Source: Malacoraja senta (lineage: Eukaryota). From it: a DNA stretch of 64,000 nt. The notes under the pieces were generated by a model, which saw only the letters and a list, made by a program, of their open reading frames with translations, was not told the DNA's origin and searched no databases. The stretch lies in assembly GCA_038087875.1 (NCBI GenBank), contig CM075988.1:1798001-1862000 (forward strand), in the 5' to 3' direction. How positions within the stretch are numbered: position 1 is the stretch's first letter; each line of letters opens with the position of its first letter. This document shows positions 4,437 through 64,000 of this stretch, piece by piece. The position numbers and the translations under genes were made by a program.

Positions 4437-4955
4437 CAAAAAGGGGGCATGAATTAGCTCTGGCAGATAATATTAAGGGAAATCCAAAGATTATTTCAAT
4501 TAAGTATATTGAGAGAAAGAAGTCAACTAGAGAAAGAATGGGGACCCTCAAGTTGTCATCTGTATGTGGAGCTGCAGATGGGCAAGGTCCTCAATCAGAA
4601 TTTATCCTCTAATTTTACAGTGAAGAACATGAAGACTGGAGAACTTGGGACAGTTAATAGTGATGTGTCTTATAGACAGTTTATATTATGGTTGAGGTGC
4701 TGGAAGTCCCAAGGTGTATTTAGGTAGATACATTTATCACTCCTGCTCAGCTATGTCCAGGGGCAATTGGGAAGCTAGAAAATAAATTGCAGGAGCCCTG
4801 GCTGAAATATATGAATCACCTTTAGACACAGGTGAGGTGCCGGTCGAATGGATGGGTGGCTAACGTTGTGCCTCTATTTAAGAAGGGCTGCAAGGAAAAG
4901 CCTGGGCACTATAGATCAATGAGCCTAACATCAGTGGTAAGCAAATTACTGGAAA

Positions 4956-7912
4956 TTTGCTTACCACTGATTATCGCAGCTGCGGGAGCCCTGGACTTTA
5001 AATTTTCCCACGCTGGCTGCAGAACTCCCGACCCGACTGAGGATCCCAGGTACTGTACCTGGGAACCCCGGGATGACCTGCAGAGCCCACGGGCCGGATC
5101 TCCCAGGAACAACGGAGCTGGAGCTGCCGACTTTGAAGGAACCCCCGTTCGTTACGGAGCTGGAGCTGCCGTCTGTGAAGGAATCCCCGTTCCAGCGCAG
5201 GTCCGCAGAAACAGCAGGTACGGTAAACTCAGCACCTGGAAACAAAGGGGAAGCCTCCATTGTGTCCGGAAACGTGGCCGACGGGCAGGACTTCAGGTCA
5301 GACTGAAGCGCAGGGGACTTCGGCCCCCTCTCCCTACTATCCTACTGGCCAACGTACTGTCCCTTGAAAATAAAGTGGAGGACTTAAGGGCAAGGCTGCT
5401 TTATCAAAGGGAGCTGAGGGAATGCTCTGTGTTCTGTTTCACAGAGACATGGCTCACCCCCAGCTCCCCAGACTCAGCGGTCCAGCCTGAAGGGTTCTCC
5501 ATCCATCGTATGGACCGTACACTGGCATCTGGGAAAGGGAGAGGAGGGGGCGTCTGCCTCATGGTCAACTCTGCGTGGTGCTCAGACGTGGCAGTCCTGT
5601 CCAACTCCTGCTCTCCACACCTCGAACATCTGGCGGTGAAGTGCCGTCCCTTCTACCTCCCAAGGGAATTCACCTCCATCATCATGACCGCGGTCTACAT
5701 CCCACACCAGGCAGACGTCCGTCTGGCACTGGAGGAGCTGCATGCCGTGGTCAACAAACACCAGATGTCTTACCCCGAGGCGTTTACCACCATAGCCGGG
5801 GACTTCAATAAGGCAAACCTAAAGAAATCACTCCCTAACTTCCACCAACATGTCTCCTGCTGCACCAGAGGACCAAACACCCTCGACCACTGCTACACCA
5901 CCATCAAGAATGCCTATCGTTCTATCCCTCGCCTTCACTTCGGTAAATCCGACCATACCACGGTGCTGCTTCTTCCTGCCTACAGGCAGCAATTAAAGAG
6001 TGCACCCCCAGAGGTGAGGACAATACAGAGCTGGTCAGGGGGGGGCAGAGGAACAACTCCAGGACTGTTTGGAGTCTGTAGACTGGGCAATGTTCAAGGA
6101 CTCGGCAACGGACCTGAACGAATACGCCACAGTCGTTACAGACTTCATTAAGAAGTGTGTGGAGGACTGCATCCCCACCAAAACCTTCCGAGCGTTTCCC
6201 AATCAGAAACCTTGGATGAACTTTGAGATCCGCACTCTTCTAAAGTCCAGACACCGGGCATTCATGTCTGATGATACAGTGGCCTACAAGGAGTCCAGAT
6301 ACGACCTTGGTAAGGCCATTAAAAAGGCCAAAAGGGACTTCTACTCCAAACTGGGCCTGAATGCAATCACCTCTTACAAGGCGAAATCAGGAGGCAGCTC
6401 GAATGTCAGCGAAACATCACTCCCTGATGAGCTCAATGCGTTTTACGCACGCTTTGATAGGGAGAACACCGATGTGCCTTGCTGAGCCCCCATTCGCTGT
6501 GATGGTATTTCAGTCTCAGTCACAGAGGCCGACGTCAGGAAATCCTTCAGAGGGGTGAACCCTCGAAAAGCGCCTGGACCTGATGGTATACCTAGTCGCG
6601 TTCTAAAAACCTGTGCGGACCAACTGGCTGGAGTTTTTACGGACATTTTCAACCTCTCACTTCTGAGGTCTGAGGTCCCCACCTGTTTCAAAAGGGCATC
6701 AATTATACCAGTGCCCAAGAAGAGTAAGGTGACGTGCCTCAATGACTATCGACCTGTGGCACTAACGCCTGTGGTGATGAAGTGCTTTGAGAGGTTGATC
6801 ATGATGCAGATCAACTCCTACCTCGACAAAAACCTGGACCCACTGCAGTTCGCTTACCGCAACAACAGATCAACGGTGGATGCGATCTCGCTGGCCCTCC
6901 ACTCCGCTCTGGACCACTTGGACAACAAAAATTCATATGTCAGGCTGTTATTCATCGATTACAGCTCGGCATTTAACACAATCATCCCCTCCAAGCTGGT
7001 TACCAAACTCGCAGAACTGGGTCTCTGCGCATCCCTCTGCAATTGGATCCTCGACTTCCTCACTCTCAGACCACAGTCTGTTCGTATTGGTGGAAATGTG
7101 TCAGACTCTATAACAATTAGCACGGGAGCACCTCAAGGCTGCATGCTCAGTCCCCTGCTGTACTCACTCTATACTTATGACTGCGTAGCCGGACATTGTG
7201 CGAACTCCATCATCAAGTTCGCTGATGACACCACTGTTGTGGGACGTATCACTGATGGGGTGAGTCAGAGTATAGAAGAGAGATCGAGCAACTGTCCATA
7301 TGGTGCCAGCACAACAACCTGGCCCTCAACACCAGCAAAACCAAGGAACTGATTGTGGACTTTGGAAGGAGTAGGATGGGGACCCACAGTCCCGTTTATA
7401 TCAACGGGTCGATGGTTGAAAGGGTCAAGAGCTTCAAATTCCTGGGCGTGCACATCTCTGAAGATCTTTCCTGGTCCGAGAACACTGATGCCATTATTAA
7501 GAAAGCACATCAGCGCCTCTACTTCCTGAGAAGATTACGGAGAGTCGGTTTGTCAAGGAGGACTCTCTCTAACTTCTACAGGTGCACAGTAGAGAGCATG
7601 CTGACCGGTTGCATCGTGGCTTGGTTCGGCAACTTGAGTGCCCTGGAGAGGAAAAGACTACAAAAAGTAGTAAACACTGCCCAGTCCATCATCGGCTCTG
7701 ACCTCCCTTCCATCGAGGGGATCTACCACAGTCGCTGCCTCAAAAAGGCTGGCAGCATCATCAAGGACCCACACCATCCTGGCCACACACTCATCTCCCT
7801 ACTACCTTCAGGTAGAAGGTACAGGAGCCTGAAGACTGCAACGACCAGGTTCAGGAACAGCTACTTCCCCACAGCCATCAGGCTATTAAACCTGGCTCGG
7901 ACAAAACACTGA
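4956..7912 (+). pseudogene. Rex1 APE endonuclease-reverse transcriptase ORF, broken into four pieces
   Basis: EN motifs FCFTETW, GDFN, SDH (to 6151); RT motifs PGPDG, YRPVAL, GAPQG, FADD (6555-7352); C-terminal piece 7355-7912. Confidence 0.92.
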
Positions 7913-8087
7913 ACTTTACTAGCCAATACTGTTATTTGCACTTTATCAGTATATTGACTATTGTGTATATATTTATAGAATGCCTTGTAGTAAATGCCTA
8001 CTATGTTCTGTTGTGCTCAAGCAAAGCAAGAATTTCATTGTCCTACCAGGGACACATGACAATAAACTCACTTGACTTGACTTGACT
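4956..8087 (+). mobile_element. Near full-length Rex1/Babar LINE
   Basis: TSD TGGAAA at 4950-4955 and 8088-8093; 3' tail ATTTCATTG...ATGACAATAAA-(CTTGA)n. Confidence 0.93.
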
Positions 8088-8615
8088 TGGAAAGGATTCA
8101 GAGGGATAAGATGTACATGCATTTGGGTAGACAGTGACTGATTAGAGAGAGTCATCATGATTTTGTAAGCGGGAGATTGTTTCTTACGGATCTGATTTTA
8201 GTTTTTTGTAGTAGCCAAAATGGTTGACAAGGGCAAAACCACAGATGTTGTCGAATTTGACTTCAGCAAGGCGTTTTCTAATGTCAATGGCAGGGTAGTT
8301 GAATAACTTTTTTGCATCAATCTTCACAGCAGAAGATATCAGCAACATGCCTGAAATTCAAGCGAGTCAGGGGGTGGAAGTTACTGGAGTGGCTATTACT
8401 AGGGAGAATGTGCTTGGGAAGTTGAAAGGGCTAGATCACATGGGATCCAGGGAGATAACCGACTGAATAGAGAAAGGCCTTTGTGGAAGGAAGGGTGTTG
8501 GTGGAAGGTTGTATTTTGGACTGGAGGCTTGTGACTAATGGTGTGCCTTAGTGCTGAACCCATTCCCGATAGTGGTTTATATCAAGATCTGGATGAGATT
8601 GTACAAGCATGATTA

Positions 8616-20386: not shown

Positions 20387-21231
20387 AACAAACTGCTACA
20401 ATACAAAACAAACTGCTACAATACAAAACAAACTGCTACAATACAAAACAAACTGCTACAATACAGTACAATCAGCAGGGATCTGACTCCCAATCAGCTG
20501 CTCCCTCTTGTCTGCTTCCACCAATCAGCGGCTTCCTCAAACCCACTTGTTTTTTAAATGGAACTTGGAACGTTACAGATTTGGGTACTCTGTAGAAGCA
20601 AGCCCCGCGCTCCTCTTTAAATCCTACCGCTCGGGTGTAGCTCCTCCCTCTGCAACCTCTCCAACGGCTCTCGGGCCTCTGTGGAAGCAAGCCCCGCGCT
20701 CCTCTTTAAATCCTACCGCTCGGGTGTAGCTCCTCCCTCTGCGACCTCTCCAACGGCTCTCGGGCTTGTAACGTCATACAGCTTGTCACAAGAAACTGCT
20801 ATATGGCAAGCATAGATCTGCAAGATGCATATTATTCTGTTGCTGTGCATGGTAATGATCAAAGATATCTAAAATTTAGATGGATGTCAGTTATGGCAGT
20901 TTACAGCATTGCCTAATGGCCTGACTTCAGCGCCAAGGTTATTTACAAAATTGCTCAAACCAATTTTAGCTCTGCTAAGAGCTGAGGGCCATGTATTAAT
21001 GGCTTATTTGGATGATATTCTGATTGTGGGGGACACTTTGGCTACCGCAAAGGTATCAGTGTCAAGAGTCAAGTACATTTTTGAGAAAATGATATTCATT
21101 ATTAACCCACAAAAATCGAAACTATTACCAAGCACAAAGATTGATTACCTAGGGTTTACAATTAACTCAGAACACATGGTAATCACCTTGCCAAAAGATA
21201 AAAGGCTGCAGTTAATTGAAGGTTGTACTAA

Positions 21232-22180
21232 AATCAGTGAGAGTACTTTGATTGTTTTTACAGATGGATCTAAAGATCCAGTTAGTGGGAGAGCTGGGTT
21301 TGGAGTGTATGTGGAGCAGCTTGGGTTGAAGATTGGCCGGCGCATTTCTGATGGAAGTTCTGTTCTCACGACTGAATTAATGTCAATTCAATGGGCTCTA
21401 TGGTGGATTGAGGAAGCCAGTTTTAGAGAAGTCATTATCTGTTCTGATTCTGCAGCTGCTCTTGAAACTTTAAGAGTAGGGAAATCTAAAGCTCGTCCTG
21501 ACATTCTAAATGAAATCTTGAGTGTGTTTTCTAGAATTGGGTTTGCGTGTAACATCACTTTTTGCTGGGTTCCCGGGCATGCTGGGGTGAGGGGGAATGA
21601 GCAGGTGGACCTCATAGCAAAGGAGAGTTTAAGAAGAGAAATAGATATCCATGTATCATTGGGGAGAGTGGAACTGAGAGAAATAATTAAAGAGGGCGTA
21701 ACAAAAGAATGGCAGAGAGGATGGGAAATGGAAGTCAGGGGTAGACACTACTTTTCTATACAATCTGAAGTTAGGAAAATATGTTTCTGTACATCTCTGT
21801 CCCGTAGGGACTCAGTTAAACTGTGTAGATTGAGGTTGGGACACTGTGGGTTAAATTACTATTTGTGCATTGTAGGGAAACATGTTTCTGGCTTGTGTGA
21901 ATGTGGGAGTAATGAGACAGTTAAGCATGTTTTCCTAGAATGTAAAAAGTATAGGGTAGAAAGAAAAGTATTATTTGTTAGACTGACAGGACTTGGAGTT
22001 GAGGCTTTTTCTGTTTTATCTTTGTTTGGACACAATGAGAAACATCAACTGATATCCAGGGCTGTTCTTCAATTCCTGCAAGTTACAGGACTGTATATAA
22101 GAATTTAGTTCAAACTTTGACCTGTGGAGGGCAGTAATACGCTTAGCAGCGTCTACACTGCCGGAATCCTACAAGAAGAA
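21232..22180 (+). mobile_element. 5'-truncated RNase H-encoding LINE (I/Nimb-like)
   Basis: 14-bp TSD GAAGGTTGTACTAA at 21218-21231 and 22181-22194; RNase H (FTDGSK, TTEL, SDS, WVPGHAGVRGNEQVD); RLRLGH and CECG...ETVKHVFLEC knuckle; stop at 22108; (GAA)n tail. Confidence 0.92.
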
Positions 22181-22752
22181 GAAGGTTGTACTAAGCTCAT
22201 TAACGAGTACCAGCCCTCAATTAGACAAGTGGCAAGCTTGCTGGGCAAATTAATTGCTGCTTTTCCAGCCGTAAAATTTGGACCATTGCATTATCAGCAT
22301 TTGCAGGGAGCTAATGCAGGGCATTAAAGGTTAATGCAGGGCATTTTGATAGGCCCATGCAATTGATAATTGAGCCTATTATGGAAATAGAATGGTGGAT
22401 TAACAATGTCTCTAATGCTTCCAGAAAAGTTCTGGTAGAAACACCTTCCGTTATTCTACAGACTGATGTAAGTGCTCTAGGATGGGGTGCAACTAACACT
22501 GTTTCCAGCTGTGGAGGTAGATGGAATGTGGAGGAAGTACCTTTGCTTGACAATCAAGGTATAAATTACCTAGAGCTATTAGGAGCATTTTATGGGCTTA
22601 AAGCTTATTGCTCTAATATGGAAAATTTGCATGTTCAGGTACAGATTGACAATACTACAGCTGTAGCATATGTAAATCATATGGGTGGTGTCAAGTCAGA
22701 ATCTTGTGATAGATTGGCAAATGTATTCTGGACCTGGTGCATTGCCAGGAAT

Positions 22753-23666
22753 AGTACCCAGAAGCAATACATTTCTTATATAAGGAAATGGGAGGTGTTT
22801 TGTTCAGAAACGAATATTGCATATAACACCGCAGACATTTCAGATGTGTTAGAGTTTCTTTCAACTCTTTATTTTGAATTAAATTTAATCTATAGTGCAA
22901 TTAATACGGCAAGGAGTGCTCTCTCTGCATACTTATGCAGGGAATTAGAACAAAATCCAATAGGGTCACATCCTTGAGTCTGTAGGTTTATGAAGGGAAT
23001 TTTCAACTCCAATCCTCCTAGACCCAGGTATACAGAAATCTGGAATGTAAAAATGTACTTATGCTGCTGCGTGAATGGAATCCTATTGAAGCTCTGTCAT
23101 CGGCCAAAATTACCATGAAGTTAGTTATGCTCATGGCGTTAGTTTCAGCACAGAGAGTTCAAACATTACAGAAGTTAAGAATAGACAGGATGAAAGTAGG
23201 GGCAGATGCCGTTACATTCTATGTCTATGATTTGCTTAAACAAAGTAGACCTGGGTTCACGGGATGTAAGTTGGGTTTTTCAGCATATCCTACGGATCCA
23301 CGGCTATGTGTAGTAACATATATAAGATGTTACATGGAAGCAACCAGAACCTTAAGAGGTACAGAATCAGCATTTTTTGTCAGCTATAAATGTCCTCATA
23401 AGAAGGTGTCAACACAGACGATTTCAAGATGGTTGAAACAGGTGTTGATTTATTCAGGTATTGATACTGATAAATTTAAATCTCATTCCACCAGGGCGGC
23501 ATCAACATCGGCAGCCAGGGATTCAGACGTTCCAATAGATCTTATCCTCGCGGCCGAAGGATGGGCAAGTGAACAGATGTTTCACAAGTATTACCATAAG
23601 GAGATTAAAGATCCCGGGGTGTTTGGTGGTGCCGTGTTGGATTCAGTATTAAATCCCCTATTATGA
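22753..23666 (+). pseudogene. DIRS tyrosine recombinase (N-terminal binding plus catalytic domain), frameshifted
   Basis: STQKQY...INTARSALS, then ORF 23061-23666 with AQRVQTL, KQSR, HSTR, GW and FHKYY motifs. Confidence 0.9.
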
Positions 23667-25480: not shown

Positions 25481-28400
25481 TGTAGATTGGTTATTGCATG
25501 TGAACCAATCATAGTAGAATAACATCACTAACCCCACCTTACTGTATGATTCATACTAACACCCACTTCCTACACTGGTCAGTCTTGGAAGCGGTAACGA
25601 TGAACTAACAACTAACGACCTTCTATACCGCTATAGTATGGGTACTGATTAAAGATGATCTTGAACTCCGGATTGTACAGTTTGCTTATTTACATGGTGT
25701 CATTAAGCTTGGAGTAACCCACTGCGTCCTTTTACCTGTATTTATTTCTGTTTATCAGTTTTTTTTCTTGCTTCGCTATGGCTCAATCTGCACAGCTTAT
25801 CTTCGATTTTGACATCGGTGAAAGATGGAGACTCTTTGAAATTGATTACGAACACTACATCAATATCGTCCACCGAAATGAACCAGACTCTGTCAAGGCT
25901 TCCCTCTTACTTAACCTGGCGGGACCCGAAGCCATGATGAGAGCTCGGACATTTGAATACGCACCAGCTGTCCATGACGACAACGATCAGGTAGTTGTGC
26001 CTGCCGAGTCTATGCGTGACCCTAATGTTTTACTGGGTAAATTCCGTGAACTATGTGACCTGCCGTCGAACCTCATTTTAGAAAGAGCCAAATTCTTTGC
26101 GAGACACCAGCTTCCTGATGAGCCGGTAGAGAGATTTATTTGTGATTTAAAATACATGGCTCAAAGGTGCCGGTTCCAAATCATGATGAATGAATTGATA
26201 CGAGACAAACTGGCCTGGCATGGCCAAGTACAGCCTGGCGCTGCACCAACAGAGACAGCCCCTGCTACAACAACCTCCACCAGCACTGCCCTGGACGTCG
26301 TGGCAGCAGACATTTTCGAATGGCACGGTAAACATTATCTAGTCCTGGTCGACTCCTATTCTAACTGGTTCGAACTTGATTTACTGCCTTCTATCACACC
26401 AGAGATGGTCATTCAAAAGCTAGAGACACTTCTCCACATTCGGCGCACCTGTCCGCTTGCAGACCGACAACGGAAGACAGTTTACCAGTCACGCCTTCAA
26501 ACACTTTGCTAACCGATGGAATTTCCACCATGTCACGAGCAGCCCCGAATACCCACAAAGTAACGGGCTCGCTGAACGAGCCGTCAGAAGCGCAAAACAG
26601 CTAATGGAACGCACCCACCTAGCCAAGTCAGATGTGTACCTTGACCTTTTAAACCTCAGAAACATCGCTAGAGATGGGGTCCTGGGCTCGCCAGCCCAAC
26701 GCCTGATATCCAGAACAACGAGACCACTGATACCAATTGCCCAGCAGAAGCTTGCACCACAGGGAGTGGGAGTGGCGGCGCCTAACGGCAGCGGCTGAAC
26801 TACAGTCGTTCGTCTTTTTACATTTTTTTTGTCTTGTTAAATGTATGTCTTGAGCTTAGTTTTAATTATTTTTTTGCTGTGTATATGTGGGGGTGGAGGG
26901 GGGGATGTTGGGGAAACCGTTAATCTCTTCCCTGTACGGGGACCCGACTTTTTCCCTGTCGGATCTCCGATGTCGTTGGGCCTAACATTGTGGAGCTGGC
27001 GGCGGCCTCCGGCCGGGACTAACCTGAGGGCTCCAGTCGCGGAGCCTGGGACCTGACATCGCGGAGCTGGCCGGCTTTGGAGCGGGGAGAGCTGTGGTGG
27101 CGCTCGGCTGCGACCCGACTTTGGAGTTTCGGAAGCTCCGGCTGCAGGCCCGGTGGACAGTAACATCGGGAGCTCCAGGTCCCTGGTGGGAGACGGCTTT
27201 TCGGAGCTCCCGCAACGGCAACTTCTCCCGCTGGAATCGCGAGGTTTGGAGGACACGGAGCGAGGCCTAACATCGCCCGGCGCGGGTTGGCGGCCACGGG
27301 ACTTACCATCGTCCGCCGGGGGCTCTAACATCAGAGCCCCAGTTCGCCTAGACGCTGCAGTTGGACTGCGGATTGGACTGCTTGAACCGCGGGGTTTGAA
27401 GGACACGGAGCCGGGGCCTGGCATTGCCCGGCGTGGCTAAATGGCCACAGGACTTACCATCGTCCGCCGGGGGCTTTAACACCGGAGCCCCAGTTCGCCT
27501 AGACGCTGCAGTTGGACTGCTGGACCGCGGGTGAAGAATAAAGGGAAGAGATAAGACTTTGCCTTCCATCACAGTGAGGAGGTGTTGGAGACTCACTGTG
27601 ATGGATGTTTATGTAAACTGTGTTAAGTGTGAGTCTTGGTTGTTTTTTGTAATGTAAAAAACTGTAGTAATGATATTTCGTTCAAGCCTAGGTTTGAATG
27701 ACAATAAATAGCATTCATTCATTCATTCATTCACAGGTGCTGAAGCCAGCCACGATCCAGAAGCGCATCCAGGAGAAACACAACATCCTGCAAACCACTT
27801 AAACCACTACTACCGGGCCAAGTCGTCCGTTTGCAAACTACTGTGGGACATTCCCGTCTAGGTTGCGTTGTTGGCCCGTCCAAAGAACCCCGATCCTACC
27901 TTGTTGACATCGATGGCGCTTTGTACCGTTGGAGCCGCCAACACTTGCTAGCTGTGAAGGAACCACGTCCACCACCAGCCGATCCTTTCGCTCCATCTCT
28001 ACTGTTCCAGCCGTCTGCTGCCGTGGCCACCACCAGTTCCAGCATGTCCCTTACTCCACCATGACCGGTGGCTATGACTAACAACAACACTACTTCTCCC
28101 GCATGCTCCCCCTGTCGGTCACCACGAGTGTCCCCTGCTGCTTTCTCACTTCCGGGTTCACCGCCTCCCTCTAACTTTTCTGGCGAAGGGGGAAAGGGCT
28201 TGGTCCGTACGCGTTCGGGCCGTATTAGCAGACCGCCTGACAGATATGGCAAGTATGTTTGAATTCTAGCTGCATGTGTGTTTAACTATATTCGCTATTT
28301 ACGGGGAAGGATGTAGATTGGTTATTGCATGTGAACCAATCATAGTAGAATAGCATCACTAACCCCACCTTACTGTATGATTCATACTAACACCCACTTC

Positions 28401-28525
28401 CTACACTGGTCAATCTTGGAAGCGGTAACGATGAACTAACAACTAACAACCTGCTGTACCGCTATAATATGGGTACTGATTAAAGATGATCTTGAACCCC
28501 GGATTGTACAGTTTGCTTATTTACA
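25481..28525 (+). mobile_element. Internally deleted Gypsy LTR retrotransposon
   Basis: 214-bp TG...CA LTRs at 25481-25694 and 28312-28525 (7 differences by eye); 5-bp TSD CTTAC; PBS-like TGGTGTCA; PPT GGGGAAGGA; gag N-part joined to integrase (ADIF, TDNGRQF, PQSNGLAER); no PR/RT/RH. Confidence 0.95.
26764..27731 (+). mobile_element. Non-coding non-autonomous retroelement with Rex1-like 3' tail
   Basis: 6-bp TSD CACAGG at 26758-26763 and 27732-27737; tail ATTTCGTTC...ATGACAATAAA-(CATT)n resembles the Rex1 tail at 8031-8087; internal ~150-bp-period duplication at 27241-27520. Confidence 0.85.
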
Positions 28526-34327: not shown

Positions 34328-34443
34328 CATATGTACATGCAGTGTGAGAGGTTGCAGCCCCTGTTCGACTATCTGAAGGGGCTGCTCCTCAGGTTCGGCT
34401 GCACTTTAGCCCCAAGCTCCTGATATTTGGTCACCCAGTACAG

Positions 34444-35692
34444 TAGGTATGTTACAAAACTTACCTTCAGCGGCGCTGCAGTTCTGTCACTGCCCGTGTG
34501 TGCGACTTTGGTGCCTTTGAGAGGGGGGCGGGTTTAAAATGCGATATTTCGGCAGCCTATTAAAATCGATGTCTGTCAGGTAAATTAGCTGCTAAAGAAA
34601 AATCGCTTCGACTGCCGTTTTATTAAGTTTATTAAAATTAGCGCTGGATAATTAAATTGTTGGAGTAAAATTAAAATCATCTTCAAATGCCGTCAACGCC
34701 GACAACGGGGACGGATTTCACGCACGGGACGCCGTTTATTTTTTCATATAAACTTGCTTCTTAGGATGCCCTTAATCAAAATTTCTCGTTGCGAAATTGT
34801 GACTATGTAAATATACCAACCGGCAGTATTTTTCCTGCCGATATTGGGGTTTTAATTCACTGCAACCGCAACGTTCCAAACCAGCGCGTTCCACAAAAAC
34901 CCACTCGCAAGATGATTTAAATGCCCATTAATTTACAGGAATCAAACACTAAATTCCTTCCATTTGGCCTATAAATTCATGACAATCAGATTTAAAAATA
35001 ATGTTATATTGTGAATTCTTGTGTGAATGTTATTTGGACACTTAGGCTTTTAAAAAATGTTAACCTTTTCTTAAGAAATTGATAGATGTTTAGATCTAGT
35101 AATTGAATTTTGTAATTAGCTTCTTCTTCTTCGAGGCCGTTGCAATCTCAGATGTCGTTCTGCCAGTATCTGGCGCAGGTCACAGCTGGTCGAGTCGGTT
35201 CAGCCAGGTTCTGGGGGCTGCACTGGGGGGCGTCGTCACACTCCAGTAGGTGGGACATTGTCTGTACTGCTCCACAGCTGCATGTGTCTTCTGCCTGGTA
35301 GTTCCATGCTTTCACAAGTGCTATAAGTAATTAGCTACAATTGGGTAACTAACTAATTATATGCTTTAATTTCAGGTCATCCAAGTAAGATTGTTTCATA
35401 TTTGGTTCAGAATGCGTCAATCTATAATAACTGGGAATTTCATTAAGTTCTCTTAATTTTTAAGAAAGTTATGGACTTTTGACTGTCCTTGATCACAGCT
35501 TTTGTGTTAAGTCAATGGAAAAGCAATAGGGAACAAGATGCTAATTTCCGAGTATGAAAATGGCCATAACTGTTTTAATACCGAAGATATGAAAGTGAAT
35601 TAGGTGTCAAATTAAACTTCTTTTTTATGCTTTATCTGATGGGATAATTGCAGACTTGATTTTTAAATTCTAAAAATTTTGTGACATTGCTA
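34444..35692 (+). mobile_element. Unclassified non-autonomous DNA transposon with TAG...CTA ends (copy 1)
   Basis: TIRs TAGGTATGTTACAAAA / TTTTGTGACATTGCTA; flanking AGTACAG repeated at 34437-34443 and 35693-35699. Confidence 0.85.
35122..35326 (-). mobile_element. LINE 3' fragment with (GAA)n tail (Vingi/Ingi-like)
   Basis: 10-bp TSD GTAATTAGCT at 35112-35121 and 35327-35336; minus strand encodes AWNY...CSCGAVQTMSHLLEC...ARYWQNDI-stop, then CTCGAAGAAGAAG. Confidence 0.8.
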
Positions 35693-36635: not shown

Positions 36636-37720
36636 AATGGCTCTGTCCCACGGGTTTGCGGTCGTTGCCGGTGAAGCGCGGCGTCGCCGGAAGAGGGGAC
36701 CGCACGGCAACCACGAGAGCGCTGCATGGATGCTGCGCGGGGGCCAAGTACGGCCGGTTCAACGAGCTTGTGATTTCGGCTGATGACGTCTTTCGGATCG
36801 CGGGGCTGTGGCGGCAGCCGTGCCGCACACGTGCTTCACTGGCGGCGGCTGTGGCGGTGCAGGGTTCGACTCACGGCGCTCGTGCCTCACTGGCGGAGGC
36901 TGTGGCGGTGCAGGGTTCGACTCATGGCGCTCGTGCCTCACTGGTGGCGGCTGTGGCAGCGGCCGTGCCGCACTCGTGCCTCACTGGCGGCGTCTGTGTG
37001 GTAGGAACATATTTTTGGACAGTGTTGGTTTTTTTTTAGCACCGTGCGGTGTTGGGAACAACGCCGCACGGCCCCGGAATTGTGCGTTTGACAGAGCCCG
37101 CGGTCTCTGGTGGCCCAGGAGCGGTAGATAGTTCCTGTTTCGCCGCCAATGACCGCAGACTCATGAGACAGGCCTTTAAAGGCTCTGTCTTACCTGTTTG
37201 TAAGACAACGGCGAGAGCGTCGAGCCTATCCACCGGAGCGCCGCACGGATGCTGCGCGGGGGCCGAGTTAATTCAAACACGGCGGGTCCCACGTGCTTGC
37301 GGTAAGTAAAAAAAAGGGCGGGCCGACTGCGATGACGTCGGCCCGCCGCACGTGACTCACCAGCGGCGGCTGTGGCGGCGGCCATCCTGATCGCGGCGCT
37401 GTAGCGGTGGCTGTGCCTGCGGCCGTGCAGCACACGTGCCTCACTGGCGGCGGCACGTGCCTCACTGGCGGAGGCTGTGGCAGTGGAGGTTTGATGCACG
37501 GCGCTCGAGCCACACTGGCGGCAGCCCGTGCGGGCGGCCGTGCCGCACTTGTGCATCACTGGTGGAGGTTGTGCGGTGAGTATATGGTTTTCGACATTGT
37601 CGATTTTATTTTAGCACCGCCGCACGGCCCGGGAATTGTACGTTCTCATGAGTGCGCGGTCTATGGCGGCAGATTCTTCCCGTTTCACCGCCAATGACCG
37701 CAGACTCGTGAGACAGGCCT
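36636..37720. mobile_element. Two head-to-tail Harbinger/PIF-type MITEs (~36636-37175 and ~37179-37720)
   Basis: Each unit runs GGCTCTGTC...GAGACAGGCCT, separated and followed by TTA; the two GC-rich bodies are related but diverged. Confidence 0.68.
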
Positions 37721-37766
37721 TTAACTCTCCGGGTTAAAAAGTCTTTCCTCATCCCAGTCCTAAATG

Positions 37767-38799
37767 TAGCAATGTTACAAAATTTTGAGATTTTAAAAAT
37801 CAAGTCTGTAATTTATCCCATCAGATAAAGCATAAAAAGAAGTTTAATTTGACACCTAATTCACTTTCATATCTTCAGTATTAAATAAGTTATGGCCATT
37901 TTCATACTCGGAAATTAGCATCTTGTTCCCTATTGCTTTTCCATTGACTTAACACAAAAGCTGTGATCGAGGACAGTCAAAAGCCCATAAATTACTTAAA
38001 AATTAAGAGAACTGAAAGAAATTTTCAGTTATTATAGATTGAAGCATTCTGAAACAAATATGAAACAATCTTACTTAGATGACATGAAATGAAAGCATAT
38101 AATTAGTTAGTTACCTAATTGTAGCTAATTACAAAATTCAATTACTAGATCTAAACATCTATCAATTTCTTAAGAATAGATTAACATTTTTAAATAGCCT
38201 AAGTGTCCAAATAACATTCATACAAGAATTCACAATATAACATAATTTTTAAATCTCATTGTCATGGATTTATAGGCCAAATGGAAGGAATTTAATGTTT
38301 AATACCTGTAAGTTAATGGCCATTTAAATCATCTTGCGAGTGGGTTTTTCTGGAACGCGATCATTTGGAACGTTGCGGTTGCGGTGAATTTAAACCCGTA
38401 TCGGCATGAAAAATATTGCCGGTTCGTTCGGGGAAAAAAATCACCGTTTCGCAACTTAAAATGTGAATTAAAGGCATCTTAAGGAGCACTTTTATACATA
38501 AAATAAACGGCTTTCGTTTACCTGTCCCGCGTGTGAAACCCGTCGGCGTTGACGGCTTTAGAAGCTGATTTTTAAATAACTCCAGCGCTGAAATTGTCGG
38601 GCGAATAAAAAAAAAAAAATACACAGAACGCCCGTCGGAACAATTCTTCAGCAAAAGCTTGCACTCCAACGAAATATAATCCAGGACAAGGTAGGAGAAA
38701 CCCACGTTTTAACCCCGCCCCCCCAAAGGCGCCAAAATCGCGCACACGGCCAGTGGCAGAATTGCAGCGCCGCTGAAGGTAAGTATTGTAACATACCTA
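37767..38799 (-). mobile_element. TAG...CTA DNA transposon (copy 2)
   Basis: Reverse-complement homologue of 34444-35692; CTAAATG at 37760-37766 and 38800-38806. Confidence 0.88.
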
Positions 38800-39964
38800 C
38801 TAAATGGCCTACCCCTTATTCTTAAACTGTGACCACTGGTTCTGGACTCCCCTAACGTCGGGAAAAAATGTCTGCATCTAGCCTGTCCAATCCCTTCAGA
38901 AATGTATATGTTTCTATAAGATCCTAAATAAGACATTAAATGTAACATCTCTAAGTTTAAATGTAACATCTCTATGTTTGCGGATGACCAGAGACGGAAA
39001 CTGCTGTCAAAACATGGAGGGAACCCGGGACAGGGGGGGCACAATTTCTTGGCGGCCACTCACACACACAAGCGATGAATCGGAAGCTTCAGCCGTGCGC
39101 CCTGTGAACGGTAATTAGCTCAGGATTCTTCCAGTTTCCAGCCTGTGGATGCCTCTACTACGGGGCCGTTACCGTTAGAATGCGTCAATTAGTGTAGATC
39201 TGTACCACACTGGACATCATGCTGGACATCATAATATAGGACAGGACACGTCCTGTCCTATATTATGTTGTCCACTGTCCAGCATGATGTCCAGTGTTTT
39301 TTAAATCTGTGGTAGCTCTAGTATGGAAATTCCTGTTTCGCCGCCAATGACCGCAGACTCGTGAGACAGGCCTTTAAAGGCTCTGTCTTACCTGTTTGTA
39401 AGACAACGGCGAGAGCGTCGAGCCTATCCACCGGAGCACCGCACGGATGCTGCGCGGGGGCCGAGTTAATTCAAACACGGCGGGTCCCACGTGCTTGCGG
39501 TAAGTAAAAAAAAGGGCGGGCCGACTGCGATGACGTCGGCCCGCCGCACGTGACTCACCAGCGGCGGCTGTGGCGGCGGCCATCCTGATCGCGGCGCTGT
39601 AGCGGTGGCTGTGCCTGCGGCCGTGCAGCACACGTGCCTCACTGGCGGCGGCACGTGCCTCACTGGCGGAGGCTGTGGCAGTGGAGGTTTGACGCACGGC
39701 GCTCGAGCCACACTGGCGGCAGCCCGTGCGGGCGGCCGTGCCGCACTTGTGCATCACTGGTGGAGGTTGTGCGGTGAGTATATGGTTTTCGACATTGTCG
39801 ATTTTATTTTAGCACCGCCGCACGGCCCGGGAATTGTACGTTCTCATGAGTGCGCGGTCTATGGCGGCAGATTCTTCCCGTTTCACCGCCAATGACCGCA
39901 GACTCGTGAGACAGGCCTTTAACTCTCCGGGTTAAAAAGTCTTTCCTCATCCCAGTCCTAAATG

Positions 39965-40995
39965 TAGCAATGTTACAAAATTTTGAGATTTTAAAAATCA
40001 AGTCTGTAATTTATCCCATCAGATAAAGCATAAAAAGAAGTTTAATTTGACACCTAATTCACTTTCATATCTTCAGTATTAAATAAGTTATGGCCATTTT
40101 CATACTCGGAAATTAGCATCTTGTTCCCTATTGCTTTTCCATTGACTTAACACAAAAGCTGTGATCGAGGACAGTCAAAAGCCCATAACTTACTTAAAAA
40201 TTAAGAGAACTGAAAGAAATTTTCAGTTATTATAGATTGAAGCATTCTGAAACAAATATGAAACAATCTTACTTAGATGACATGAAATGAAAGCATATAA
40301 TTAGTTAGTTACCTAATTGTAGCTAATTACAAAATTCAATTACTAGATCTAAACATCTATCAATTTCTTAAGAATAGATTAACATTTTTAAATAGCCTAA
40401 GTGTCCAAATAACATTCATACAAGAATTCACAATATAACATAATTTTTAAATCTCATTGTCATGGATTTATAGGCCAAATGGAAGGAATTTAATGTTTAA
40501 TACCTGTAAGTTAATGGCCATTTAAATCATCTTGCGAGTGGGTTTTTCTGGAACGCGATCATTTGGAATGTTGCGGTTGCGGTGAATTTAAACCCGTATC
40601 GGCATGAAAAATACTGCCGGTTCGTTCGGGGAAAAAAATCACCGTTTCGCAACTTAAAATGTGAATTAAAGGCATCTTAAGGAGCACTTTTATACATAAA
40701 ATAAACGGCTTTCGTTTACCTGTCCCGCGCGTGAAACCCGTCGGCGTTGACGGCTTTAGAAGCTGATTTTTAAATAACTCCAGCGCTGAAATTGTCGGGC
40801 GAATAAAAAAAAAAATACACAGAACACCCGTCGGAACAATTCTTCAGCAAAAGCTTGCACTCCAACGAAATATAATCCAGGACAAGGTAGGAGAAACCCA
40901 CGTTTTAACCCCGCCCCCCCAAAGGCGCCAAAATCGCGCACACGGCCAGTGGCAGAATTGCAGCGCCGCTGAAGGTAAGTATTGTAACATACCTA
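39965..40995 (-). mobile_element. TAG...CTA DNA transposon (duplicate of copy 2)
   Basis: Same flanks as 37767-38799; lies within the tandem duplication. Confidence 0.88.
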
Positions 40996-42457
40996 CTAAA
41001 TGGCCTACCCCTTATTCTTAAACTGTGACCACTGGTTCTGGACTCCCCTAACGTCGGGAAAAAATGTCTGCATCTAGCCTGTCCAATCCCTTCAGAAATG
41101 TATATGTTTCTATAAGATCCTAAATAAGACATTAAATGTAACATCTCTAAGTTTAAATGTAACATCTCTATGTTTGCGGATGACCAGAGACGGAAACTGC
41201 TGTCAAAACATGGAGGGAACCCGGGACAGGGGGGGCACAATTTCTTGGCGGCCACTCACACACACAAGCGATGAATCGGAAGCTTCAGCCGTGCGCCCTG
41301 TGAACGGTAATTAGCTCAGGATTCTTCCAGTTTCCAGCCTGTGGATGCCTCTACTACGGGGCCGTTACCGTTAGAATGCGTCAATTAGTGTAGATCTGTA
41401 CCACACTGGACATCATGCTGGACATCATAATATAGGACAGGACACTTTCAAGCAGCTTGTCCTGTCCTATATTATGTTGTCCACTGTCCAGCATGATGTC
41501 CAGTGTTTTTTAAATCTGTGGTAGCTCTAGTATGGAAATTACAGTATGAGCTATTAAAACCAAGCAATATATAAATGATCTGCATTATATGCAACCTAAA
41601 ACTTTGTATTCTTTGTATTCTTGGATGTATTAAACATTTGTTTCCCCAATTACCAGCTGTAAAAATAGAGGGTGTCAATGAGTTAATAAAATTGCTTTAT
41701 AATCTGCAGAAGCATTTGGTCTCTGTAATTGTGTGTTTTGTTGCCTTTGGCTCGAAGGGCCAAATGGCCTCCTCCTGCACCCATTATCTATGTTTCTATG
41801 CAACTGTCATGCACGAAATTTTGTTCAGACTTTGAATAACAATAAAGGAAATTCAATTCAATTCAATTCAATCTACAGGTGGAGATTCCCTCCCTCTATT
41901 TGGAAATGATTCATGATGGAAATCATACATTCATAACTTCAAGACACAATCTGAATTCAATTGTATTCAATTTTTGTCAAATACTTCATGTAACGCCAAA
42001 TCTGATTACAACAGTAAGGTCCCTGTCACGAGATGAGAGGGGTTGAAGCAGTGTTGTAAGGTTGCCATCACAGTCATCTTTCCCACGTAACGGCAGACCT
42101 TGCTGGGTCAGATACTGCAGCGTTTCAATTATCTGCATTAGGGATCTCTGTGCCAGTATCTGTCCTTGGCATAATTGTTTGCTCAGCTGGGCATTAATGT
42201 CACATGCCTTGTTGCGGTGAAGCAAGTTTGCACTGGCAATTTTGTGGCATTCAGACTTTTGATGAACTTGGAATTTTTCAATGCCTTTTTTCCAGTTCTT
42301 AAAACCGCGCGAGATAAATGTTTGCTCCTTGAATTTTGACATTTTCATCAAGTCTTGTTCTGATGCTACTGCACAGGTATGACACAATACACCATTTGGT
42401 TCAACATGGAGCCATGGAAACTCTTTAAACCAATTTGCCTGAAACTTACGAGATCTA

Positions 42458-44075: not shown

Positions 44076-47000
44076 TACATTTCAAATTCTGTATTGGCAA
44101 AGAAGAAAGGTCTCTAGGATGGTTGGGTTTCTTTAGCAATGAAATTGTCAGTGGAGCTCCTGCAGAGGGAGATGTCAAAGAAGTCCCTACATGTATGAAA
44201 CAAGGTGGTTCATCATTCCTGTCTGACGAGGACAAAGAATTATCAGCTGGGAAAACTTCATTTCCACATGGACTACCACTGGTCAACACTGGAGTGTCTG
44301 GTCTAGTAGCTGACGATGACAAAACGGGACTACCTGGTGGTGCAGATGTCATGGCTGGATTTCCTGATCTGGTTGGTGTCATGAATGGACTTTCTCGTCT
44401 CGGTGGAGATGTCACGCCTGGACTTCCTGATCGGATTGGAGACGTCTTGACGGGACTTGTAGCAGATGTAGTAACCGGACTTTCTGGTCTGTTTGTAGTT
44501 GTGTTGGTTGGACTGGTACTGGTAGCATAGGATGACAAGGCCACACTGCCTGGACTGTGAGTGGAAGGAGATGAACAATAATTGATACAAAAAATTCAAT
44601 CATTCAAGATAGTAAACAACAAAGGTGATTTAAACTGCAGCGATATCATGTAGTCACTTTTCGAGAAAACCCCACCGCCCAAGTCCATTTAATTCCGCGT
44701 GTCTCCATTTCATTCATTAAGTCGCCGGTACTGTCACATCGTTCGTTTTCGGTCAATACAAAGGAACAGTCTGAAGAAGGGCGACGATAGACACAAAAAG
44801 CTGGAGTAACTCAGAGGGTCAGACAGCATCTCTGGAGAGAAGGAATGGGTGATGTTTCGGATCGCGACTTTCCCGGTTGCTACCTGGAACCTACCTAATC
44901 TAGTTGAGGTAAACCAGCATCTGCAGTTCCTTCCATTGTACAACAGAACAGTACAAGGAGTGGTTAATGTTAGAGGCTGCTCACTAACCTCACTATGTTT
45001 ACATCGTCCTCTCTAGCAATGAATAAATATAATTCGGTTACCGTATTATTGACTACAACCGCCCGTTTAAAATGACTGCTCTTTAATTCTCAACCACTGG
45101 ATATTTGCCTGGAAACATATTGCATGTTTTCGTTCAGTGAGATAATTCAATTTTAATAGACAGGTGTTAAATCCGGCACCATTTCACAACAAACTAAACG
45201 ACCTATAATTTAAATAGAGCATTTAGGATCGATAATAAAATTCCCAAGTCTATTTCACATATATAATTCCAGCACCACTTCACACTGAGCTTTCCTTGAT
45301 GTTGTTTGGATAAAACACTGTTTGACATAATTTGAAGTTTTGAAATTAATCCTCGCAGCCTAATGTACACTTTGGGCTAAGATTTGATCCAACATTGCTA
45401 ATGTCACCGTATTCTTTCTCAACCAGGTAGAGGTAAAAGGCGTTTAAAAAAAAAATGGGTAGCAACATGGATACACAGAACATGGAATAGAAAACAGTAT
45501 AGCAACGGAACGGGCCCTTCGGCCCACAATGTTTGTGCTGAACATGATGCCAAGTCAAACTGATCACATCTACCTGTACACGACCCATAAATCTTCCCGC
45601 ACAACCCTGTACCTATCTAGAAGCCTATTGAACGCAATTATCGTCTCTGCCTTCACCTGTTAGCGTCCTGCATGACAATGATTCCACAGCTATTTACACC
45701 ACGTTTCCCACGTCATTTTCAGCTGGGACGGGAGCTTACTATCTGGAGAAGATCCTAGTGAAGGCACCGATTCCAGCGGCACCTGTACGATCATACTCCA
45801 ATACCAGAATTAATGTACGTCCACCATATTTCGATCCGGTTCTCACGGAGATCCCAACAGCAGCAGATTCCCCCACTAATTCCCCAGTGCAACAGCAGGA
45901 ACCCCTGCAGGAGCCTTCACTTTACCAGCCTGACCAATGGCTCTTTCCCCATCTGTTGCTAGATGGCTAACAGATGGGAATCTTTGCTTATATAACATTA
46001 CACTGCGAGGTTCATTGACAGAATCAAAACACAAAACATTGGAACTTTCCGCCCACAAGTTCTGTCCTCGCATTTACATCAATATTTACAAGTGTGAATT
46101 GTTAGTTTACGATTGTGTCTGTGTTTAAATTGTCATGTCAACTTTTTTATTTCCCCCAAATTATTACAGAGGCGAATAAAAATACATTGGAAAACCTGAA
46201 CATAATAGTTGCGCTTTCTCGCCAATTTTAAATTTAGTCAGCTATAGCTCGACTTCTTTAGAACATCGATATTTCACTTAGAAGTTAAAACTGGAAAGTT
46301 TGTGTTTAAAAGCTGGTTATATTACAAAGTTCAAATTGTTAAATCATTGAAAATTTGCCAGAAGTTAAGTTTCAATTAGTAAATATGATTTCTGTTATTT
46401 TTATGACAAGTTTATCTAATGCACTTAAAACGCCGAAGGGAACTTTGACCCTAAAATGTACATTGGAATGAAGTTTGTTTCCTATCATTAATTGCAAACT
46501 GTAGAGCCGATGAACGTCGCAAGCCTCTGTAATGATATAAGTGCAAGTCCCAGGTAAACTATATGATTAAGTAGCATTCTTTCATGGATGGTATCACTGA
46601 ATAAGAACGGGCTGCTCACACATAATATGGTAGATTATCTGCAATTTCTTCCATGCAATAATATTCACACAAAATATTAAAGTGAAATGAGAAAAGATAG
46701 GTAGTTGAGATCAGCACTTAAAATATACCTTTTGGAAACTGGTACCCGCATGAAAAATGAATGCAGTGTTCTTTGTTTCTCCTTTTGAAATGAAGTATTG
46801 TCTGGATGCCTTCTCTTCAAACATCTCCGCATTGGACCGTCGGACATTTCGATGTTCACAAATCAGCCTCCACAAGTTCAAATGATAATTGTGCTCGCGC
46901 CTGACATTTTAAATGCATCTCCCATTAATTTAATTCAAAGGAACGCATCATACTTGAAGCAAGGTCAGTTCATACAATTATATTATGAGGATTAATGAAT

Positions 47001-50000
47001 GGATTTCGATGCAACAATGGCAGACAGTTAACACATCGTTTCCGTGAAGGGACCTTGCTTCAAGTATTTCGCGTTCCTTTGAATAAAATTAATGGGAGAT
47101 AGACAATGTCATTAAAACTCAGATGATTCGAGGCATTTAACACTCCATTCCATTCCTCTGACACAAAAACAATGTGACACAATTATAATTACTAAGGATG
47201 CAGTAATGGGATCGATAGCAGTTAACAGTCACAAAGACAGTTAGCACATCGTTTTTTTTGTCAGAGGAATGCAGTGATGAACGAACGACTCGAATCGAAC
47301 GTCTCGACTCGAAACAAATGACTTTAAACGAACGAAAAACCCGACAAACCTTACAAAGCTTGTAACGTGAGGGAGACTATCCCCCACCTCTGAAAACATG
47401 GAGGGGACACATCCCCTCTTCCCCCCCCCTGGGTTTTCCGCCGTTGCGGATGACACAAAGCTGGGTGGCAGTGTGAGCTGCAATGAGGATGCTATGAGGT
47501 TGCAGAGTGACTTGGATAGGTTGGGTGAGTGGGCAGAAGCATGGCAGATGCAGTATAATGTGGATAAATGTGAGGTTACCTACTTTGGTGGCAAGAACAG
47601 GAAGGCAGATTATTATCTGAATTGTGTCAGATTGGGAGAAGGGGAGGTGCAACGAGACCTGGGTGTGCTTGTACATCAGTCACTGCTAATCAGTCAGCAG
47701 AAAGACATTACATGATTACAATTGAGCATTTTACAGTAAATAGATGCATGATAATTGGATAATGTTTAGTGCAAGATAAAGCCAGCAAAGTTCAATCAAG
47801 GATAATCCGAGGGTCACCGATGAGGTAGATAGTAGTTCAGCACTGCCCTCAGGTTGTGGTAGGATGACTCAGTTGCCTGATAACAGCTGGGAAGAATGTC
47901 CCTGAATCTGGAGGTGTGCGTTTTCACACTTCTATACCTTTTGGGAGATGGCAGAAGAGGGAGTGGCCAAGATGCAACTCGTTCTTGATTATGTTGCTGG
48001 CCTTGCTGAGGCAGCATGAGGTATAAATGGAGACAAAAGAAGGGAGGTTGGTTTGTGTTTCCTGACCTTGCTTTGCAGTCAGTTATCTTATTCAGACCGT
48101 GCCACATTCTCCGTGTGTCCAAGTGATTATACTGGGACTCAAATTTGTCCCGGTATTGTCTCTTGGCATCCTTGATGGCTTTGCGGAGGTCATAGATGGC
48201 CTGGCCTGAACCTGTGAATGTACCTCGCAGTTCATTCATGATTTCCAGTTGGGGAACACTCTGATTGTCTTTGTCGGCACACAGTTTTCCACACACTTGC
48301 TGATGAGGTCAGTCACGGCAGTGAGGTACTCATTCAGGTTGACCAATCGCTGAATATGGACCAGTCCACTGACTCAAAGCAGTCCTGTAAAATGTCATCC
48401 GTGTCCGTTGAGCAGCATTTCACAACTCTCTGTACCAGATCCTCCTGCTTCAACAGATTTCCCAAAAAATGGGTCGAGGGTCAGCAGTTTATTATTGATG
48501 TGTAGCAGTAGTTGAGAATGTTCTGGCCCCTGGTGGAAAAAGAGACATGCTTTGGTAGTACACCCCTGAGGTTGGCTTGGTTGAAGTCTCCGGCTACAAC
48601 GACCAGGGCTTCAGGGTGTTTTGCCTCGAGGCTATTGATAGTGGAGTACAGTTTGTTCAGAGCAAGCTTGACATTTGTGTTGGTGGGGGGGTGTACATTG
48701 CCGTCAGGATAGCTGAGGTGAATTCTCTCGGCAGGTAGTAGGGACAGCACTTCACAGTCAGATAGTCCAGGTCCGGGGAACATGAACTTGCCAGGACTGC
48801 CATGTCTGAACACCACAGGGTATTGATTAGAAAAACAGACATCGCCACCTCTAACCTTGCCTGAAGATACTGTACGATCCATCTGGTGAAGGGAGAAGCT
48901 CTCGGGCTGAAAGGCACAGTCAGGTATGTCAGGGATGAGCCATATCTCTGTGAAACAGAGCACACAGCAGTCTCTCACTTCTTTGAGGCTGTAGCGGCGC
49001 CTGCTGGCGCACGCAGGTATCGAACCCGGCGTTCGGAAGCCGCGGTCACCTGACTCGGGAGGGCCTGCTTGTTTTCGCGCGGTTTTGTTTTCGCGCGGCA
49101 GTTCAGTGCTGACCACCGTTGTGGCCAGACGTGTCGAGAGAATCTGTAAACTGAGAAGAGAGTTTCTGAATAAAAGTTTGTTGCAACACTCAGTTTTCGT
49201 TTTTGCGACCGCCAAATTGGTGACCCCGATCTGTCTAGCCGTCGTCAGACAAGCAGATCATGCAGGAGGACTACGTTACCACAGAATCGGCCTCACCGGA
49301 CTTCAAATTACCATCGTTTTGGCCCGATCAACCTCAGGTGTGGTTTGCCCACGTTGAGGCACAGTTTCACCTCCATCGTATCATAGAAACATAGACATAG
49401 AAAATAGGTGCAGGAGTAGGCAATTCGGCCCTTCGAGCCTGCACCGCCATTCAATATGATCATGGCTGATCAACCAACTCAGTATCCCATCCCTGCCTTC
49501 TCTCCATACCCCCTGATCCCTTTAGCCACAAGGGCCACATCTAACTCCCTCTTAAATATAGCCAATGAACTGGCCTCAACTACCTTCTGTGGCAGAGAGT
49601 TCCAGAGATTCACCACTCTCTGTGTGAAAAATCTTTTTCTCCTCTCGGTCCTAAAGGATTTCCCCTTTATCCTTAAACTGTGACCCCTTGTCCTGGACTT
49701 CCCCAACATCGGGAACAATCTTCCTGCATCTAGCCTGTCCAACCCCTTAAGAATTTTGTACTTTTCTATAAGATCCCCCCTCAATCTTCTAAATTCTAGC
49801 GAGTACAAGCCAAGTCTATCCAGTCTTTCTTCATATGAAAGTCCTGACATCCCAGGAATCAGTCTGGTGAACCTTCTCTGTACTCCCTCTATGGCAAGAA
49901 TGTCTTTCCTCAGATTTGGAGACCAAAACTGTACGCAATACTCCAGGTGTGGTCTCACCAAGACCCTGTACAGCTGCAGTAGAACCTCCCTGCTCCTATA

Positions 50001-63819: not shown

Positions 63820-64000
63820 TTGTCCTGGATCACAGCTTTTGAGTTAAGTCAATACAAAACAATAGGGAACAAGATGCTAATTTCTTAGTATGAAAATGAC
63901 CATAACTTTTTAAATACTGAAGATATGAAAGTGAGGTAGGTAAATATTAAAAAAAAAAATATGCTTTATCTGATGGGATAAATTACAGGTTTGATTTTAA
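63820..64000 (+). mobile_element. Partial right arm of the TAG...CTA family, running off the window
   Basis: TGTCCTGGATCACAGCTTTT...AATAGGGAACAAGATGCTAATTTC matches 35484-35670. Confidence 0.75.

Follow-up and report, generated by a model that had tools for sequence, protein, structure and literature searches.

Bipartite non-autonomous LINEs (RTESINE, Bov-A, RIME, NARTc, and derivatives of Vingi and R2) join the 5′ and 3′ ends of a LINE without an ORF and are probably transcribed by Pol II and mobilized in trans, as described in the accessible text of PMC5786205; that text lists ORF-less bipartite LINEs only for RTE, Ingi, Vingi, and R2, and also describes tail exchange in SINEs (Kojima 2018). 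The two elements analyzed here, A and B, have the same organization and are proposed to share this mode of expression and mobilization, but differ in a structured middle of ~750 nt between the ends and in the existence of a relative with the tail of another clade. The SINE superfamilies CORE, V, Deu, and Ceph resemble A and B in combining a conserved middle with LINE-derived tails that vary by family, a likeness that extends to CmiSINE, SacSINE1, and HE1 of cartilaginous fish (PMC5499810 and PMC3747384, in their accessible parts). Unlike A and B, those SINEs are shorter and have tRNA or 5S heads with Pol III boxes.

Sadhu of Arabidopsis is likewise ~900 bp long and non-coding, with neither a small-RNA head nor A and B boxes, and is similar to A in its 5′ motif with a pyrimidine tract and its target duplication; it differs in its poly(A) tail, in its 39 related sequences, and in having no LINE-derived ends (PMC2848041, accessible part), whereas A and B have clade-specific stem–loop tails and form a large family. 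Neither the Sadhu 5′ motif CAATCGTTSC nor a poly(A) tail is present in A or B. Among autonomous elements, Rex1 LINEs share with A a 5′ motif with a T-rich stretch and a 3′ motif with a short microsatellite (PMC7846101, accessible part), but encode endonuclease and reverse transcriptase (RT) between these ends and have a head spacer of 8 nt as opposed to 6 nt in A. Both arms of the tail stem of ZfL2-1 match B, and such a stem–loop is the target of the ORF2 protein; stringent LINE proteins bind the stem–loop of their own tail, which is established for zebrafish L2 (PMC4176376, accessible part). The loop and terminal repeat of ZfL2-1 differ from those of B, which is ORF-less. A and B have a tail as in a stringent SINE and a head as in a bipartite non-autonomous LINE; they fall outside the Pol III SINEs and show most features of bipartite LINEs.

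The window, the whole stretch of 64 000 nt that was analyzed, is animal DNA dense in repeats. It contains remnants of LINE, LTR, tyrosine-recombinase, and Tc1-like elements, together with short SINE fragments that we take to resemble HE1. RT, RNase H, and tyrosine-recombinase frames follow one another at 20873–23666 (+), a layout that is presumably that of a DIRS-type element. A 2.2-kb tandem duplication (37132–39331 and 39330–41540; 99% identical) is either real or an assembly artefact. A non-coding repeat family with 71–94% identity between copies (34442–35692, 37767–38801, 39965–40997, 61439–62987, and 63821–63998) is abundant and looks like a DNA transposon of the non-autonomous kind. Long inverted repeats were found at 1352–1425, 39207–39297, 41403–41506, and 46917–47100, three of which gave weak microRNA-precursor matches far below Rfam gathering scores. 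Element A and its surroundings comprise the following features:

25481–28525, +, LTR retroelement that hosts A, with LTRs at 25481–25694 and 28312–28525 (96.7% identical)
26758–26763, +, left copy of the target-site duplication CACAGG (6 bp)
26764–27731, +, whole element A (968 nt), an ORF-less non-LTR retroposon with Rex1-type ends
26764–26800, +, head, a Rex1-type 5′ end, with TGGCGGCGC-N6-GCAGCGGC at 26773–26795 (N8 in Rex1 records)
26815–26875, +, T-rich tract with runs T5, T8, T4, and T7, which would stop Pol III
26884–26913, +, TATGTGGG and G-run, a G-quadruplex pattern
26937–26969, +, hairpin 1, with one mismatch (C26943/A26963)
26979–26996, +, motif GGCCT..CAT..TGGAGC, the first among several ACATCG-like repeats
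27000–27550, +, CpG-rich body (GC 0.66, CpG observed/expected 0.90)
27230–27369 and 27380–27520, +, 150-nt tandem unit inside the body (86.5% identical)
27561–27611, +, hairpin 2, with stem 27565–27578 paired with 27592–27605
27612–27674, +, T-rich spacer, the putative zone of tail exchange
27675–27708, +, Rex1-type tail, with ATTTCGTT, a stem–loop, and ATGACAATAAA
27712–27731, +, terminal microsatellite (CATT)5
27732–27737, +, right copy of the target-site duplication CACAGG (6 bp)

The predicted span of ~1 kb with a 6-bp target-site duplication proved exact, as 26764–27731 is flanked by CACAGG. A is inserted 3′ of an integrase-core fragment inside the host LTR retroelement. Its diverged relative B and a LINE close to B are made up as follows:

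3142–4130, −, whole element B, with ends approximate to ~3 nt
4065–4130, −, head, whose CAAGATGGCGG start recurs in Rex1 and Proto2 records
3859–4019, −, TATGTGTGGG and a 153-nt G-run
3799–3832, −, hairpin 1 (z −3.1)
3345–3790, −, motif and CpG-rich body (GC 0.68, CpG observed/expected 0.97)
3599–3638, −, 7-nt tandem repeat in the body
3283–3327, −, hairpin 2 (z −2.4)
3153–3207, −, L2-type tail with a ZfL2-1-like stem–loop (z −3.1), identical to the ZfL2-1 3′ arm in 18 of 20 letters
4976–8090, +, 5′-truncated Rex1-type LINE (endonuclease, RT, PF09004) with its tail at 8032–8066

No clear target-site duplication was found in the flanks of B, where a 3-nt TTA overlap is possible. The B head folds into a single long hairpin (z −4.7 against shuffles).

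The original prediction listed a head, T-tract, G-run, hairpin 1, and hairpin 2 common to the two elements, all of which were found in A and B in the same order. BLASTN (word size 7) links A and B only through the low-complexity T-tract and G-run, so kinship was judged by shuffled controls and by sliding each block of A across the whole window. The score of whole A aligned with whole B was reached by none of 100 shuffles, also when 40-nt blocks were shuffled, and the segment running from hairpin 1 through hairpin 2, which excludes head, T-tract, G-run, and tails, gave z 5.7–8.3 (0/500; three shuffle schemes). B was the best match in the window for the A head with T-tract (182 vs. 151 for the next match), for hairpin 1 with the motif (127 vs. 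105), and for hairpin 2 (133 vs. 103), and all three matches were collinear and in the same sense. For the 51-nt A head by itself B ranked only fifth in the window, and for both body blocks and the tail of A the corresponding part of B was not the top window match. With nhmmer, the 3′ halves of the two elements were joined at E values of 5.8e-5 and 9.9e-5, as against 0.15–0.29 for the heads, while the tails did not align (score reached by 383 of 500 shuffles). For the bodies by themselves the local score was reached by 18/300 and 72/300 shuffles and the global score by 5/500 and 1/500 with one repeat unit omitted; the collinearity claimed for the bodies stands for the stretch between the hairpins but is weak for the GC-rich bodies alone. 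The repeated ACATCG motif is unspecific (B score reached by 4 of 1000 shuffles and equalled by 1 of 18 control strands). The block matches, nhmmer, and the shuffles together indicate that the kinship of A and B is real, old, and borne chiefly by the hairpin blocks, as judged from sequence comparison of two full copies.

The predicted structure was likewise borne out by shuffling: hairpin 2 folds better than shuffled sequence in A (z −3.8) and B (z −2.4), as does hairpin 1 in B, while hairpin 1 (z −1.3) and the head (z −0.6) of A fold no better than shuffles and the fold of B as a whole gives no clear excess (z −1.7, 1/20). Hairpin 1 has 11 pairs compared between A and B, of which 7 are the same, 2 differ in one partner, 2 differ in both partners, and none is broken; comparison of the hairpin 2 folds by hand likewise gave 11 pairs (7 same, 3 one-side, 1 two-side, 0 broken). 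An automatic consensus fold of hairpin 2 was misaligned and was discarded. In sequencing runs containing the family (see below), the majority letter G26963 (0.79–1.0 of depth, 4/4 runs) pairs up the mismatch in A hairpin 1, and the majority letter T27592 (0.72–0.95 of depth) preserves a G–U pair in A hairpin 2. These pair-preserving changes, counted over two sequences, are suggestive of selected structure. A hammerhead core was found in neither A nor B.

Could A derive from Rex1 and B independently from L2, with a likeness that reflects a generic start, low complexity, and GC content? This would fit the lack of a BLASTN match between the bodies, the weak body alignment, and heads that have a generic fish-LINE start. 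However, the middle was still at 0/500 in block shuffles with head, T-tract, G-run, and tails removed, both hairpin blocks are the best window-wide matches and occur in order, and the changes in the hairpin stems preserve pairs. We consider an unrelated origin very unlikely.

The ends of A were compared with the Rex1-Snek records in the accessible part of the PMC7846101 supplement, to which the following counts apply. ATGACAATAAA occurs at 70 places, of which places 1–2 are internal; 59 of the 60 viewed (places 3–62 of 70) are record ends within the Rex1 block, and ATTTC[AG]TT lies upstream in 25 of 29 record ends with ATGACAATAAA (counted by eye). A Rex1 tail pattern, derived from the same two sites that it matched in the window (A and the LINE at 4976–8090), had no match in 100 shuffles. 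The likeness predicted between the A tail and the LINE tail at 8032–8066 holds at the level of motifs, but stem and microsatellite differ, and the LINE tail is not within the six best window matches of the A tail. The match of the A tail to Rex1, as read from these motifs, holds at clade level. The top window match to the A tail is another tail of Rex1 type, at 41816–41875 (+), which has a 5-nt microsatellite; a short CR1/SINE-tail-like piece (41748–41800) lies immediately upstream of it.

At the 5′ end, AAGATGGCG occurs at 23 places in the same supplement, 21 of them in the Rex1 block and 2 at the start of Proto2 records; the exact TGGCGGCGC-N8-GCAGCGGC arrangement is found in 10 of these 23 places (one repeats a family), mostly followed by a T-rich stretch. 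The only window match of the TGGCGGCGC/GCAGCGGC head motif is the 5′ end of A, with a 6-nt spacer (0 in 100 shuffles); the spacer range was picked after inspecting both A and the Rex1 records, and since the head patterns of A and B were fixed after inspection, the shuffle counts somewhat overstate the case. This copy of A has GGAGTGG where Rex1 has AAGATGG, and the AAGATGG start is absent from A. The family had originally not been recognized, and no Pol III boxes had been seen in it; the boxes are indeed lacking, and the A head corresponds to the 5′ end of published Rex1 records. B begins with CAAGATGGCGGATGTGCAGG, which is near one Proto2 record and one Rex1 record, and its head can be called LINE-type only, since among the 5′ ends compared the AAGATGGCG start is common to Rex1 and Proto2. 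The B tail matches both stem arms of ZfL2-1 as given in the primer table of PMC4176376 (accessible part), and B is the sole window match of the 20-nt ZfL2-1 3′ arm (2 mismatches, 0 in 100 shuffles). In line with the prediction, the tails of A and B belong to different LINE clades, that of A to Rex1 and that of B to ZfL2-1-type L2.

The 5′-truncated LINE at 4976–8090 appears to share its clade with the A tail and is at most a candidate partner family. Relatives of its RT are fish RT proteins, many with PF09004, and its tail matches Rex1 records. A protein (P0009) on a 6958-base contig is 98% identical to this RT over 62% of the query, and a 42-nt palindrome (4930–4971) lies at the 5′ junction of the LINE. 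The highest Rex1 coverage is reported for rays, salmon, and barracudina in the accessible part of Stuart 2026 (bioRxiv 10.64898/2026.01.13.699120); this report and the HE1-like SINE fragments of the window suggest that the host is a cartilaginous fish.

Because the A head matches a Rex1 5′ end, an objection raised with the original prediction, that head and body could be plain LINE 5′ UTRs, holds for the head; a weak test did not extend it to the middle. A and B could be viewed as internal-deletion derivatives of local autonomous Rex1 and L2 elements with the hairpins in their own 5′ and 3′ UTRs, in which case parts would have been exchanged between LINEs and the short elements would never have changed partner. 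A carries Rex1 at both ends, Rex1 and chondrichthyan L2 lack ORF1, and some ORF1-less LINEs of the CR1 group have repeated subunits of 100–500 bp near the 5′ UTR (Stuart 2026, accessible part), a pattern that the 150-nt unit of A fits. In the window Rex1, too, the 5′ part is GC-rich and contains a repeat of 42 nt, and the 5′ truncation of this element hides its true UTR. However, this 5′ part and the 3′ UTR give no match to A or B, and three exact hairpin 2 words are absent from the PMC7846101 supplement (an exact-word comparison in which some long records are incomplete, in a text that gave no match for three elasmobranch genus names). Neither of two body ORFs is fused to an endonuclease or RT, a weak point that covers 2 of 6 sense frames, and two clades would still have to share both hairpins. 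An origin by internal deletion is the main alternative, and we regard it as unlikely.

Instead, we favor, as moderately probable, that A and B are diverged lineages of an ORF-less, probably Pol II-driven LINE derivative with a structured core and Rex1/L2 tail exchange. Neither an A box (≤1 mismatch) nor a B box (≤2 mismatches) was found in the head of A or B with the consensus sequences for these boxes, and T4–T9 runs occur within 50–130 nt of the start of both elements. Rfam gave no gathering-level match and no small-RNA family at E up to 10, and ARAGORN found 0 tRNA genes in a window that holds no intact tRNA head as a positive control. The predicted absence of a tRNA, 5S, or 7SL head is thus upheld by box scan, Rfam, and ARAGORN, with the same proviso on the control. 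Exact B boxes at 49026 and 60086 were considered as a scan control and rejected because they are located in an LTR pair. This LTR-like pair (48990–49216 and 60050–60272; 91.6%, ~11 kb apart) has an exact B-box word on the minus strand of each member, and CR1 and L1-like LINEs lie between the two.

Of the features of a Pol III SINE, a LINE-derived 3′ tail is present, small-RNA head and boxes are absent, and early T-runs are present. A and B could still descend from a Pol III SINE in which a tRNA, 5S, or 7SL head has eroded, or from a cellular non-coding RNA that was retrocopied and joined to LINE tails, as tail exchange is well known for SINEs (PMC5499810 and PMC5786205, accessible parts), the core could derive from a cellular RNA absent from Rfam, and the window has no intact tRNA head to prove that the scans detect an eroded one. 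The box-free heads with their early T-runs, the Rfam result, and the Rex1 match of the A head speak against this origin, which we regard as most improbable. By comparison, several features of a bipartite ORF-less LINE are present, namely a LINE 5′ end (Rex1 in A, LINE-type in B), a LINE 3′ end, and no protein.

That the elements are non-coding, as predicted, is consistent with 5 ORFs across A and B that match no Pfam family and with two body ORFs that lack any real relative, longer proteins giving no match at E 0.001, while the same protein database contained 6544 relatives of the window Rex1 RT. Two matches of the body ORFs in a representative set, to long repeat proteins that carry MBG or PA14 domains, were taken as spurious. 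CpGs are retained in both bodies, and transcription of A and B is probably carried out by Pol II, as far as features of the DNA can tell.

Words of A were found in 23 of 24 listed runs, which span 11 studies with at least 8 coded organisms; two runs contain half or more of the words, and the run richest in them may come from the source of the window itself. One run (X18) is marked as probably DNA, and there is no RNA run among the listed runs with words of A. Mapping covered 4 of the 24 runs, with the small-share runs X19–X23 left out, and placed 10960, 8442, 8876, and 586 contigs on A in four runs from four organisms. A is a large, abundant retroposon family. Its target-site duplication, together with thousands of contigs over all parts in one organism, shows that it moves as a unit and has many copies. 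Contigs that skip ~155 nt across the tandem unit of A (27230–27520) occur in all four runs, so that one-unit and two-unit subfamilies probably exist. Hairpin 2 is the deepest bin in 4/4 mapped runs, and loose contig ends cluster before and behind it. Relative to hairpin 1, the depth of the tail is 0.30 in coded organism A, as compared with 0.005, 0.010, and 0.033 in the remaining three, and that of the head is 0.23, as compared with 0.05, 0.03, and 0.10; depth by part is no proof of a swap because depth is not copy number and Rex1 tail stems vary by family. Among the contigs listed, none spans the whole of A, none has a full second tail, and none joins one core to two tails. Scans with a hairpin 2 pattern matched 3 viral contigs, 3 metagenome contigs, and 2 bacterial-genome contigs; the six viral and metagenome matches lie within unrelated sequence and were dismissed as chance, and the viral contigs contained no Rex1 relative and no L2-tail match.

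A four-step mechanism is proposed for the favored LINE-derived family. Pol II would start at the LINE-derived head, which in B and in Rex1 has a YY1-type CAAGATGGCG, and the CpG-rich body would aid this start; CAAGATGGCGG is given as a YY1 site (PMC7974901, accessible part), and YY1 is tied to human L1 initiation according to a reference title in PMC4982230 (accessible part). The hairpins, for which structure is supported, would then form in the RNA and may serve its survival or its pick-up in trans by a LINE protein. The matching ORF2 protein, of Rex1 for A and of a ZfL2-1-type L2 for B, would bind the terminal stem–loop, and target-primed reverse transcription into the nick would create the microsatellite end and short duplication that are observed for A. 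Finally, template switching or recombination within the T-rich spacer that follows hairpin 2 would have replaced the tail at least once and so brought the core to another LINE clade.

We lean toward an exchange from Rex1 to L2 because A has Rex1 at both ends. The tails were originally called swappable; tails of two clades do occur on related cores, but two copies amount to one exchange, and its direction and the frequency of exchange lie beyond them. In a side observation on the heads, many Rex1 records in the accessible part of the PMC7846101 supplement open with an ATG that lies within the YY1-type start and precedes a T-rich stretch, and the B head has the same ATG within its YY1-type start (4126, minus), where it opens an ORF of 31 codons. 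The promoter motif may double as a start codon in these Rex1 records and in the B head.

The layout of A and B was not found described in the literature searched, which was mostly open-access, with Repbase Reports and most subscription journals outside its scope, and the same literature yielded no papers on non-autonomous Rex1, L2, or CR1 elements. The parts of A and B are of known kinds, and their combination is new relative to this literature, although the family may already have a plainly named entry in Dfam or Repbase. A and B represent a real, abundant, and apparently undescribed retroposon family in which Rex1/L2 tail exchange is probable. A broader proposal, which we put forward tentatively and with some doubt, is that cartilaginous fish harbor a widespread superfamily of abundant Pol II parasitic RNAs with a two-hairpin core absent from autonomous LINEs and with heads and tails taken repeatedly from different Rex1 and L2 families. 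If true, this superfamily would correspond, with Pol II as its polymerase, to the SINE superfamilies CORE, V, and Deu.

With this family, the CR1 group (Rex1, L2) would join the four LINE clades given by Kojima 2018 as sources of ORF-less bipartite parasites, and partner switching would be seen to extend beyond Pol III SINEs. The family is also relevant to the function of conserved SINE bodies, and its mutable hairpins and two natural tails allow a direct retrotransposition test. For annotation, an abundant repeat in these genomes may be mislabelled as Rex1, L2, or unknown.
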